A DNA stretch of 62,886 nucleotides, counting the filler, from Bonamia ostreae (Eukaryota): the NCBI GenBank assembly GCA_040357525.1. It is 52 parts of 52 records of this genome, joined end to end, with 100 filler letters (N's around TTAATTAATTAA, not from the genome) between each part and the next. Parts side by side here need not be neighbours in the genome. Positions count along the whole stretch, not along the records: positions 19,467 to 20,579 come from JBDODL010002662.1; 51 more parts are not named here. One strand, given 5' to 3'. Under the pieces are notes generated by a model. The model was not told where the DNA came from, did no database searches, and saw only the letters and a list, made by a program, of their open reading frames with translations. Positions 7,310 to 53,165 of the stretch are shown piece by piece (within the stretch, counting starts at the first letter, position 1; every line of letters begins with the position of its first letter). Made by a program: the position numbers and the translations under genes.

Positions 7310-8426
7310 ACCTCAACCCCTGTGGGGCCAACTTGCCACCTTGAGGTCAGGGGCCATCAGGGGTGGGGCGAACTTTTTTAGACTCATGATTGATAGGGCC
7401 AGACCAAACCCCTTCTGTGTGAAAAATGTTTTGGTTCCACTGTTGCTCCATGGGTCCGTTGTGGGGCTGGGGAACTAGAAATCTACCATGACTTTACCAT
7501 TCTAAAGGGGTTAACCGAATCCACTCTTGCCCTTTCTTGGGGCTTGCCCTTCAAGGGATCATCAGAGGGCCCTCCCTGGAGGTCCATGTTGAAAAAATAG
7601 GGTGCCTAGGTACCGATATATGGTTACTGTGCTTGCCTGAAAAAGGTGTAAATTTTAAGGGCTATTTAGTTACTTCTAGGGGCTAAAATGGCTTCTTGGT
7701 CAGTGAATTTTTTAGGTGTTTTCTGGCTACACTGGCTGTCTCAGATGAGTGGGGCAAGGGATCCAAAATTCGAACGAGGGGCCCATGTAAGGGGGCGATC
7801 GCAACCTCCCATGGGGTCACCTTGCCCCTTGGCACCAGGGAATCCCATGGGTTGCCCCCTGTGTTTAAGGTGTTGGTGTTATGGATCCGATGGGGCTAGA
7901 GGCCCCAATGGGTTCGAAATCCCCAGTGGGGTGTATCTCGGCCCCTGTGGGGCCAACTAGCCCCATGAAGACAGGGTAGTATGGTTGATCTTTTTTTTAA
8001 ATAACATGTTTCTGTGGGGGTTGATGGGGTTTCAGGGGCTAGTATGAGTTGAAGGGCTCTTCAGGGCATCGAACCGAAACCCTATGGGGCCAGCTGGCCC
8101 CCTAGGGGTCCGGCACCCTATGGATGTTCACTCTTTTTTCTAAGACCTGGTGCTTTAAGGTGGTTGGGGATAGAGGGCCCTCCGATGGGATAGCCCTTGC
8201 CCCCTTATGGGGTCAGGTAGTCCCATTGAGGTCCGAAACCCCTTGGGTGGTCACCTTTTTTTCTAAGGCATACCCTACTAGGGTTATTCAATGGGACCAG
8301 AAGGCCCCGATTTGTGGGAGGGCCCTCAAAAGGGGCGAACTTGACCCCTGTGGGGTCAATTAGCCCCCTTGGGGTCAGGGGTTATCAGGAGTAGGATTAA
8401 GGGTTAGGGTTAGGGTAAAGGCACTT
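7310..8426. repeat. GC-rich degenerate repeat (host-like) ending in a few TTAGGG units
   Basis: cccctgtggggccaac-like motif at ~7316, 7943 and 8345; gggttagggttaggg at ~8401-8415. ORFs here have no protein-like motifs. Confidence 0.6.
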
Positions 8427-19366: not shown

Positions 19367-19572
19367 NNNNNNNNNNNNNNNNNNNNNNNNNNNNNNNNNN
19401 NNNNNNNNNNTTAATTAATTAANNNNNNNNNNNNNNNNNNNNNNNNNNNNNNNNNNNNNNNNNNNNCAATTAATTAAAATCTTTTTATATTTTCTGCAAA
19501 TTGACATTTTGCAATCAAAAATTAAAAACGATATGGAAATTTAGCCATTTGAAAACAACAATTTTAAAATAG

Positions 19573-20420
19573 ACCGCCCGGCACTGGAAAAACAACGACC
19601 GCTTTAATATTGGCCAAAATTTTAAACGGCGAAAAATCAAAACATCTTTCATTGGAAGTTTGTTAAATTTCAATTCCAGCTTAACGCTTCCGACGCGAGA
19701 GGAATCGACACTGTGCGCAACGACATTAAACGATTCGCTGAAATGGGACAACTATTCTCGTTTAGAAATTTAAAACTAAAGAAACGGCACAAAATTTATC
19801 ATTTTGGACGAAGCCGACGCGATGACAAATTCTGCTCAATTCGCTTTAAGAAGAGGTTCTTTTGCGCTTTATTGACCGAAAAATCAAGTAATCGAAAAAT
19901 TTACGAAAAACGTTCGTTTTTGCTTCATTTGCAATCACATCAACAAGATAATCCCAGCCATCCAGTCCAGATGCACAAAAATGCGATTCAATCTTCTGAA
20001 CACACAATCCATTCTTAAAAGACTAAAGTTCATCGCCGAAAAGGAAAAGTTTTGAATTTTGACTAAAACAAAAAAGAATTAAAAACGACGAAGAAGGTCT
20101 GAAAACTATAATCGAACTTTCGAAGAACGATATGAGAAACTGTATAAATATTCTGCAGTGTTGTTGGTACGGCCACAACGAGATAAATGCGGAAAATGTC
20201 TATAAGAGTGCGGGGATCCCGCAGAAGAAGTCGATCGACAAGATCGTCGAATATCTTTTAAACGAGGAATTCCATTTTTGCTTTAAAGTCATTTCGAATT
20301 TTCAAGTCGAAAATGGCGTTTCTTTGGACGTGTTAGTGGCGTTAATATTTGAGAAGGTGCAAAGAATCGATTTTCCGGAGAACGTTTTGTCGTTTGTTAT
20401 AGAAAAAATGGCTCAAACTG
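19573..20420 (+). CDS. RFC5: Replication factor C small subunit (human RFC5 / yeast Rfc3 type); introns 19658-19679, 19760-19781, 19856-19888, 20049-20076
   Basis: Splicing restores PPGTGKTT, LELNASDARGIDTVR, IILDEADAMTNSAQFALRRVIEKFTKNVRF, IIPAIQSRC and DMRNCINILQ. Confidence 0.92.
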
Positions 20421-20424
20421 GTTA

Positions 20425-20579
20425 TTATTTGATCAAATTTTGATTTTTTTTGTCGTTTTACAATATTTTGATCAAATTTTGATTGTTTTTGTCGTTTTAC
20501 AATATTTTGATCAAATTTTGATTGTTTTTGTCGTTTTACAATATTTTGATCAAATTTTGATTGTTTTTGTCGTTTTACA
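20425..20579. repeat. 39-nt tandem repeat starting just inside the next RFC intron
   Basis: caatattttgatcaaattttgattgtttttgtcgtttta x~4 after the GT at 20421. Confidence 0.9.
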
Positions 20580-23105: not shown

Positions 23106-24056
23106 TGGCGAGATGTTCGATGCTTCCCGATTCGCCTATATTTACAAAAATCACAAAGTAATTAAATGTTTATGCTCGAAATTCGTCGATAGACGACATG
23201 AGATTTATACAAAACACGAGGTTACTTGCGAATTCGCAGCAAAAGCAATATATAATTTTGCAAAAAGCTAAAAACCCGAAAACGTCTTAAAGATGGTTAA
23301 TTAAAAAAGTTGATACATAATTACATTAGATAAAACCGGAGTGTGGCCTGAAAGAAAAGGTGTTGAGCCCTCTGGATTTCCTCAATCTGTTGAGAGAGGA
23401 GACGTTGGCGTAAATGTAATATGCGTAGACTGCATACGAAGGATTTTCGCTATGGTCCCAATCTTGCGGTTTGGTTTTATAGTCGATTATCTGTTCCGTA
23501 AAATTTTAAAACTTCCAATACACTTTCGTCGTCTACTGTATCGAACCCGCCAACTAAATTTTTTTTAAAAACTCAATTGCAAAAATTTGAATATCTTTGG
23601 GTGGGACTGCGGGTCTAGCGTCGCTTCAAAAATGGGCTGGAAAATGTTAGATAACATGTCTTGAAAAGAGTTTAGCAATCTAAAATTTTTTAGGTAAACT
23701 TGTTTGCTTTATAAATCTCGAAGAGACGCGGAATCTGGATCATCCAGACGTTTTTGCTGGAGACCAGATCGTTGTCTACAATCCATTCCGACAGTTTTCT
23801 CCACTCGTCTCTTTTCCTAAAATCACTTTAAAACTTGCCGTAGATCGATAGGCGGTATTCGTTGAATTGGTATTTCTAAACTTTTAATTTAAACCTGTTC
23901 TTCCAAATATTCGAAGACTTCCTTCGTTAGTTCGGAGAGGTATCTTCCGTTGATGTAATTGGAAGTTTTCAGAAATATCGAACGCAGCAAACTCGATCCG
24001 ACTGGATTGTATTTTTGGTTGAACTTGTCGAATCTGTGGAATGTTTGTTTGTGCGC
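23106..24056 (-). CDS. AMPD: AMP deaminase, internal part; introns 23876-23894, 23817-23834, 23680-23699, 23554-23572, 23491-23512, 23136-23336
   Basis: Spliced product [110 protein letters not shown]. Confidence 0.95.
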
Positions 24057-24318
24057 CTTTAAAAGGGGTCAAATGGATATCGAAAGCTCATGGCAACGAC
24101 TGCCTAAACAAATTTGCTTTCCGGCAAAAATTTAATGGCCAAAATTTGCCTAAGCTCAGGTCGCGCAAAAAATGTTTTCCAACTAAATTTAATCAAAAGA
24201 GGATGGATTCTCCCTGGTNNNNNNNNNNNNNNNNNNNNNNNNNNNNNNNNNNNNNNNNNNNNTTAATTAATTAANNNNNNNNNNNNNNNNNNNNNNNNNN
24301 NNNNNNNNNNNNNNNNNN

Positions 24319-52561: not shown

Positions 52562-53165
52562 ATGGCCAATACCGAACCAGATTTTGGTAAATTTTTGTGA
52601 CCATTTAGAATCAAAAGATTTCTATAAAATCCTCGGCGTCGAAAGAAATGCCACAAACAAGGAAATCAAAAAAGCGTATCGATATCTCGCCTTAAAATGG
52701 CATCCAGACAAAAATCCCAAAAATCGCCGAATGGCGGAACTAAATTTCAGAAAAATCAGTGAAGCCTTCCAAGTCCTTGGAGACCACAAGAAAAAACGTC
52801 AATACGATCGAGGCGGTTTGGAGAACATAAATTTCGGAAACCATTTCCATTCCGCGGATGATATTTTCAGGAAGTTTTTTGGTACAGACAATCCTTTTTC
52901 GAGTATGTTCGAAGATTTGGGTTTCGGGTCTGGCTTCGAAATGGGCGGTTTTGGTTCCGAGTTTAGTTCCGAGGACGATTTGAAATCAGGAAAGAGTTTT
53001 TATTCTTCTTCAACTACGCGCAAGATAATAAATGGGGAAGAGACTGTGGAAAAGACGATCAACAAGAATGGGAAATTGACTAAAGAAGTTTATGTGAATG
53101 GACAATTGACTAGAAAAATGATCGACGGTGTAGAACAGAATCTGCTCGAAATAAAAGGCGATTAA
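52562..53165 (+). CDS. DnaJ/Hsp40 class B (DNAJB6-like); 22-nt intron 52587-52608
   Basis: J-domain with WHPDKNP, a G/F-rich region and an SSSTTRKIING C-terminal domain. The true ATG is at 52562 after splicing. Confidence 0.92.

Follow-up and report, generated by a model that had tools for sequence, protein, structure and literature searches.

GTT(T) intron donors and a divergent U1 snRNA gene in Bonamia ostreae: a likely joint change of splice donor and reader RNA

Introns of Bonamia ostreae, a haplosporidian oyster parasite, mostly start with GTT or GTTT, and the donor and the U1 snRNA have likely changed together in this species. The introns would be ordinary GT-AG introns of the major spliceosome, shrunk to mostly 19-22 bases. 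A7 and C8 of U1 would pair with the intron GU, and the A residues at positions 4-6 with U at +3 and +4, possibly also at +5, replacing A, A and G. In such tiny introns a branch A placed about 8 bases before the end would leave a pyrimidine tract no space, and splicing would take the first suitable AG that is preceded by any base except G.

Introns and their donors

The window (the whole stretch of DNA analysed, 62,886 nucleotides) is made of 52 unrelated contigs of 1104-1119 bases each, separated by N-linkers that carry stops in every frame. Parasite-type composition (CpG-rich, TpA-poor) was found in 22 of the 52; the remaining 30, of other composition, are probably host DNA. An exon located on another contig of the assembly is 100% identical to the Bonamia ostreae protein MHBO_000086. 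Minisatellite-type repeats terminate several parasite contigs of the window, and may explain the fragmentation of the assembly. The GC-rich (52%), CpG-poor contig at 7310-8426 has TTAGGG repeats close to its end, and is a subtelomeric repeat. The contig at 56965-58069, of parasite-type composition, features a long minus-strand frame, which by eye resembles a putative non-LTR retroelement endonuclease.

The gene at 19573-20420 is RFC5/Rfc3 of Bonamia ostreae. The five exons (Table 1) tile gap-free on solved homologues, as 54-81, 82-107, split codon 108, 109-132, split codon 133 and from 134 on yeast Rfc3, and as 142-193, split codon 194 and from 195 on human RFC5. Four introns, of 22, 22, 33 and 28 bases, are placed to the base by this tiling. 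Donors are in order GTTT, GTTT, GTTC and GTTT, followed by GTTA in the last intron, and acceptors TAG, CAG, AAG, AAG and AAG. The last intron is enlarged by 3.9 copies of a 39-base minisatellite (20428-20579).

Table 1. Coordinates of the features discussed (positions in the window, unless a locus is named)
Feature	Position	Strand	Remarks
Contig 17 of 52 (G000:C2661)	19467..20579		Parasite-type composition; flanked by N-linkers
RFC exon with Walker A	19573..19657	+	Yeast Rfc3 54-80; the TAG acceptor before it ends at 19572, with the matching donor off the contig
RFC intron, 22 nt, GTTT..CAG	19658..19679	+	Neighbouring exons tile Rfc3 81/82
RFC exon	19680..19759	+	Rfc3 82-107
RFC intron, 22 nt, GTTT..AAG	19760..19781	+	Split codon 108; also predicted by gene model
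RFC exon with Walker B	19782..19855	+	Rfc3 110-132
RFC intron, 33 nt, GTTC..AAG	19856..19888	+	Split codon 133
RFC exon	19889..20048	+	Rfc3 from 134; human RFC5 142-193
RFC intron, 28 nt, GTTT..AAG	20049..20076	+	Human RFC5 split codon 194
RFC exon	20077..20420	+	Human RFC5 198-307
RFC long last intron (start), donor GTTA	20421..20579	+	Ends TAG before short last exon on overlapping contig L002, exon placed by eye
GTTT introns of another parasite gene (contig 20), six predicted, 19-53 nt	23491..24109	-	Donor-blind model only
22-nt predicted intron, minor GTAA class, DnaJ-like gene	52587..52608	+	Donor-blind model only
U2 candidate	L027 368-514 (G000:C951)		24-base insert in stem I, two extra U before branch-pairing segment; head to head with predicted gene

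The first-pass annotation had described donors as mostly GTT and GTTT. Its 29 donors were not individually listed, and the claim was weighed on fresh counts, which bear it out: GTT is found in 5/5 and GTTT in 3/5 donors of the RFC gene, and in 193/219 and 137/219 donors of a genome sample. The sample derives from a gene model given only GT..AG. Its training set comprised 682,755 bases from 75 of the 80 large loci, the five loci with almost no coding score having been dropped before counting. One large contig excluded from the counts (G000:C2, loci L004 and L029) scores nearly zero in the nuclear coding model, and is possibly mitochondrial. In all, 465 introns were obtained, 186 of which measure 19-22 nt and 18 at most 18 nt. 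Out of the 308 introns of 18-35 bases, the 219 without in-frame alternative donor were used as test set. The frequency of GTT in these is to be compared with 47.9% after intergenic GT (p 6e-36) and 78/143 after intron-internal GT (p 1e-12), that of GTTT with 23.6% (p 2e-34) and 42/143 (p 6e-10), respectively. At single positions, U is found at +3 in 193/219 and at +4 in 141/219 donors.

The genome is AT-rich and carries T-runs, T follows 48% of the intergenic and 78/143 of the intron-internal GTs, and background composition does account for the share of AAG acceptors described below; GTTT could accordingly be put down to the richness in T, or be an artefact of the gene model. For donors this explanation, which retains next to no probability, is already refuted. 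GTT reaches 88% in donors against 48-55% in the backgrounds, and its share is alike from AT-rich to GC-rich loci (52/63, 109/126 and 104/119), persisting in the latter. When GTAAGT and YAG were planted at the same sites, the model returned 272/277 GTA, and 7 AAG; it is not pulled towards GTT, a control which holds for the sample and does not prove single boundaries. A second run, informed on acceptors and blind to donors, gave 343/403 GTT and 248/403 GTTT. The donor-blind model applied to the 22 parasite-type window contigs gave 16/20 GTT and 13/20 GTTT, the intron at 19658 having been missed and at least two of the calls looking wrong.

RNA and homology agree with these counts. In RNA contigs from two studies (X1, presumed to be RNA in nature, and X2), 8 of the 25 introns predicted in locus L012 are absent at the predicted size, the other 17 having no evidence in either direction. 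Five of the eight RNA-supported introns start with GTTT, and one each with GTTG, GTTC and GTAA (7/8 GTT). Three NOG1 junctions, gap-free against homologues, are all GTT, and GTT are all the homology-placed donors in RFC and NOG1 (8/8). At L012 6412 the public NOG1 protein P0001 stops three residues past the GTTT donor, reading into the intron; NOG1 homologues run on gap-free with the spliced form. In the same locus an RNA contig skips 37 bases (8081-8117), bounded by GT..AG on the strand opposite to the neighbouring gene. This may be an intron spliced from a divergent transcript, or else a deletion in one allele. Because that part of the contig differs at 7 further places, and because the strand is opposite to that of the adjacent introns, the 8080-8118 skip was kept out of the counts.

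The donor signal stops at +4. Both U at +5 after GTTT (69/137, p 1.0) and G at +6 after GTTTT (18/69, p 0.12), with which the U1 described below could pair, occur at the level of the local background, and the two positions are free of selection. G at +5 is found in only 46/403 donors, and GTTTGT in 6/403. On the exon side, G at -1 is enriched (75 against 49 expected) although the U1 described below has A at position 9; this G is found in 66/248 GTTT, 43/95 other GTT and 19/37 GTAA donors (GTAA versus GTTT, p 0.004). The rise of G with the weakening of the intron side points to loop 1 of U5 snRNA, the role of which at the exon end is established.

GTAA donors form a minor class (37/403, about 9%), one member of which is RNA-confirmed. 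A at +4 follows A at +3 in 37/42 cases, and T at +3 in 25/343; G at +5 occurs in 1/37 GTAA donors. U12-type donors, marked by the GTATCC motif, are not supported, as GTAT is found in 1/403 donors. GTATGT, GTAAGA, GTAACA and GTAAGG, assigned by the first-pass annotation to host-type exons, were encountered as motif matches in other window contigs (14); their placement at exon ends is putative.

The U1 snRNA gene

Divergence of the spliceosome in this lineage had also been proposed. For U1 this is supported by its sequence, as the only match has A at the positions that face intron +3, +4 and +5. The match, the only one at E up to 1 among the 41 of 117 candidates scored in an assembly of 7503 pieces, is located on the minus strand of G000:C1288, at 766-921. 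It covers the full model length with 47.4 bits and E 3.5e-10, under the Rfam cut-off of 69.5. The loops of stem-loops I (70K) and II (U1A-type), a U-rich Sm site and stem-loop IV are all recognizable, the U1A loop having one change and the Sm site ending atypically. The centroid structure is the four-way form, with z -2.56. The 11 bases read gap-free back from helix H are UGCAAAACAUC, the canonical ones (Rfam consensus) being AUACUUACCUG, so that ...CAAAAC is in register with canonical ACUUAC. A7 and C8, which pair with the intron GU, and U10 are kept. A is found at positions 4-6, facing +5, +4 and +3; changes beyond the two opposite +3 and +4 lie at positions 3, 4, 9 and 11, position 9 being A.

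Watson-Crick pairing at +3/+4 tells donors from decoy GTs with an AUC of 0.73-0.81 for this U1 and of 0.39-0.43 for canonical U1, values which restate the donor bias in pairing terms. On the exon side canonical U1 fits better (AUC 0.63-0.71) than this U1 (about 0.50).

A U4 gene was identified above cut-off (94.4 bits). A 15-base upstream element is common to the U1 and U4 genes, at -58 and -60, and each has TATATA at -28. Within the 905,668 bases searched, the exact element is confined to these two genes; random intergenic pairs share 15 bases in 3/3000 cases. The common element and TATA-like box argue for a working snRNA gene, starting near position 1-4. On this reading the gene would be expressed, would supply the main U1 and would select donors by this pairing. 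In metagenomes, 17 loci were found by a pattern search for U1 with an A-run 5' end, two of which are U1-like copies with damaged 5' ends and 15 are unrelated; no relative is among them.

The U1-like gene might alternatively be a dead or minor variant, GTT(T) being picked by U6 or by proteins. The sub-threshold score and the odd Sm site fit this idea, as do the 5'-damaged copies found elsewhere (2/17 metagenome matches), and U at +3/+4 can also pair with the ACAGA of U6 (bioRxiv 10.1101/2022.06.08.495308). We regard it as improbable, because the stems are intact, promoter-like elements are common with U4 at the same spacing, and the changes sit exactly opposite the changed donor bases.

GTAA donors cannot pair with this U1 at +3/+4. 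It may well be, although we would stop short of calling it probable, that donors are selected by two routes: the A-rich U1 would serve GTT, and GTAA would either depend on a second, unassembled U1, or consist of ancestral sites that U5 loop 1 and methylated U6 hold in place. The tie of +4 A to +3 A (37/42 versus 25/343) and the frequent G at -1 in GTAA donors (19/37, versus 66/248 in GTTT) favour two routes; the two factors that PMC10581693 links to +4 A, METTL16 and SNRNP27K, are moreover kept. On the other hand, with G at +5 in 1/37, GTAA donors do not look like canonical U1 targets, and no second U1 match was found at E up to 1 among the 41/117 candidates scored. As the assembly is fragmented and the search covered these candidates, a second U1 may be missing, and the modified U1 may not be the only one.

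The remaining snRNAs are less clear. A U2 candidate (Table 1) is sub-threshold (21 bits, E 0.2); GUAGUA is intact, and the common upstream element is lacking. An intron within the candidate was weighed by eye and dropped. For U6, an Rfam search gave three sub-threshold matches at control level. Two sequence patterns, of which one had been compared with the U4 complement, yielded 7 and 18 matches, none U6-like; absence of U6 does not follow from these searches. The introns belong to the U2 type by their GT..AG ends, removal from RNA and YTRAY-like branch A, and by the presence of U1 and U4 genes.

Acceptors, branch point and splicing proteins

Among 196 unambiguous acceptors, 93 are AAG, 62 TAG, 35 CAG and 6 GAG. 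The A-rich AAG acceptors of the first-pass annotation do make up about half of the total (93/196; 11/20 in the window), and are not in excess over intergenic NAG (43.7%, p 0.31). Measured against background composition, its proposal of non-standard signals holds for donors, which are above background, and fails for AAG, which is no more frequent. A, C and T at -3 jointly fit the background (p 0.14), and GAG is depleted (6/196 versus 16.4%, p 5e-9). Among acceptors set independently by RNA or homology, AAG accounts for only 4/16, a small number coming in part from a GC-rich locus. The acceptor signal is one that has lost the pyrimidine preference and avoids G, not one that prefers A.

The reported lack of a polypyrimidine tract was confirmed, pyrimidines being 0.51 at -12..-4. 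The lack of a branch-point motif was not: at the population level A reaches 0.61 at -8, and TAA ending at -8 is found in 42/292 introns versus 11-12 expected. A also peaks at -7 (0.52). YTRAY with A at -8, a statistical signal, occurs 19/292 times versus about 4 expected. The branch point is weak but positioned, five bases from the acceptor triplet; with the branch A near -8, a tiny intron would have no room for a pyrimidine tract. A shifted U2 register was also considered, as the two extra U of the U2 candidate predict RYAAY. It did no better (2.4-fold) than canonical YTRAY (3.0-fold), and was discarded.

U1-C is present and conserved (63.4 bits). U2AF35 was found on two contigs, and the C-terminal part of U2AF65 on a 649-base contig (154.9 bits, under the whole-protein cut-off). 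The sole SF1/BBP match (L157, G000:C2601; 42 bits) has one in-frame TAA inside the conserved helix-hairpin, three 21-nt GTT..AAG introns recognized by eye, and an atypical composition (CpG 0.8, TpA 0.83); it is either a pseudogene, a sequence error or DNA of another organism. METTL16 is spread on two contigs (PF05971, 125.4 and 37.8 bits), and the stops inside the matches fall, by eye, in readable introns. The first METTL16 intron on L079 (G000:C1632) is of the GTAA class, and the gene adjoining the METTL16 start on the same contig resembles a subunit of the snRNA-promoter-binding complex SNAPc. SNRNP27K is present (PF08648, 75.7 bits), and keeps the Met of the C-terminal QYM motif, which we take to be the equivalent of Met141.

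Budding yeasts exemplify a known path to +4 U with no change in U1, the loss of METTL16 or SNRNP27K (PMC10581693), which is most improbable here. Both genes are present, the METTL16 stops lying in readable introns by eye; their loss therefore does not explain +4 U, and +3 U would be left unexplained in any case. In PMC11069148 (supplement 1, available part), the gene losses of B. ostreae are enriched for mRNA splicing (9/328, FDR 0.006), and one U1-binding orthogroup is listed among the gains, not significant.

As to U2AF, the divergence supposed by the first-pass annotation has one tangible lead, a predicted Leu in U2AF35. In alignments this residue takes the place of Ser34 in S. pombe U2AF23, and of Tyr34 in the S34Y structure 7C08. 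Ser occupies this position in 89/118 and 129/145 parsed homologues (2/120 and 5/150 have an unparsed finger), and Leu, Phe or Tyr in none of either set. U2AF1 S34F and S34Y discriminate little at -3, save for the rejection of G (PMC7505975). Both intron ends could have co-evolved with their readers, Leu34 removing the -3 pyrimidine preference as S34F/Y do; this would add to the joint change of donor and U1 and is tentatively entertained, with some doubt. The -3 profile of the parasite (A 93, T 62, C 35, G 6 of 196) matches that of S34F/Y (PMC7505975). Yet position 34 varies among homologues (T 20, G 5, N 2, V 1 and I 1 of 118), Leu cannot stack as Phe and Tyr do, the gene evidence comes from a single 611-base contig, two neighbouring residues are also unusual, and U2AF35 may matter little where the branch point is only 8 bases short of the intron end.

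Comparison with known systems and significance

Entamoeba has GUUUGU(U) donors and a co-evolved U1 (AACAAAC) (Roy and Bowser, bioRxiv 10.1101/2022.06.08.495308). As in Entamoeba, Bonamia has U at +3/+4 with A opposite both in U1, and as in E. invadens the branch point is about 8 bases before the intron end. Unlike Entamoeba, in which 88-90% of donors are GUUUGU, the donor signal is loose (GTTTGT 6/403, +5 G 46/403), U1 is changed also at 3, 4, 9 and 11, U1-C is conserved, the branch motif is weak, a GTAA class remains, and introns are mostly 19-22 nt. Bonamia belongs to another supergroup (Rhizaria) and has no strict GUUUGU, which makes it an independent variant of the Entamoeba-type pair. In the intron-rich genome of Mastigamoeba balamuthi, as in Bonamia, a compensatory U1 change (ACGUAC) goes with altered donors, having C at +4 (bioRxiv 10.1101/2022.06.08.495308); there, unlike in Bonamia, U1 is changed at one base, and the donor is another.

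Mikrocytids are related ascetosporean parasites with similarly tiny introns, fixed however at 16-17 nt and highly conserved, and only U2, U4 and U6 have been identified in them, according to the part of PMC10245619 available. In Bonamia only 18/465 introns are of 18 nt or less and 186/465 of 19-22 nt, and both U1 and U1-C are kept. Saccharomycotina share with Bonamia the preference for +4 U, but have an invariant U1 and have lost METTL16/SNRNP27K (PMC10581693), the opposite of what is found here. The likeness to U2AF1 S34F/S34Y (PMC7505975; PDB 7C08) consists in a bulky residue 34, and in -3 taking U, C and A, not G. The predicted Bonamia residue is Leu, not aromatic, and a fixed wild-type state of hypothetical effect, whereas S34F and S34Y are cancer mutants.

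Bonamia introns were called canonical in the comparative paper PMC11069148, the available part of which has no passage on snRNAs. The accessible part of PMC13746701 adds nothing on the subject. No report of Bonamia donors or U1 was found in the literature searched, the scope of which excluded most subscription papers, figures and preprint supplements.

The pairing segment of U1 hardly ever varies. It is kept in all 227 plus 9 fungal U1 candidates, even with changed donors (PMC10581693), and the only exceptions named in the available text of bioRxiv 10.1101/2022.06.08.495308 are two amoebae, with Physarum as a mixed case. Bonamia would be a rare case in which a splice signal and its reader have changed together. 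In practice, gene models miss introns of this kind, as illustrated by the public NOG1 protein, which reads into one. The GTAA class may be a remnant of the transition. It is rather unlikely, and yet worth stating, that Bonamia has rewired both intron ends along with their readers, by an A-run U1 reading GUUU with no need of +5 G, a bulky residue naturally fixed in U2AF35 at the cancer hotspot Ser34 and accepting AAG, and a GTAA relic maintained via a second route. Were this so, the S34 mutants would have a genome-wide equivalent in a living organism, and the U1 of the parasite would be the first co-evolved one outside Amoebozoa in the literature searched. Having many introns and loose signals, and having converged from within Rhizaria, independently, on U at +3/+4 and on a branch point at -8, Bonamia would make the joint change of thousands of donors and one RNA open to testing.
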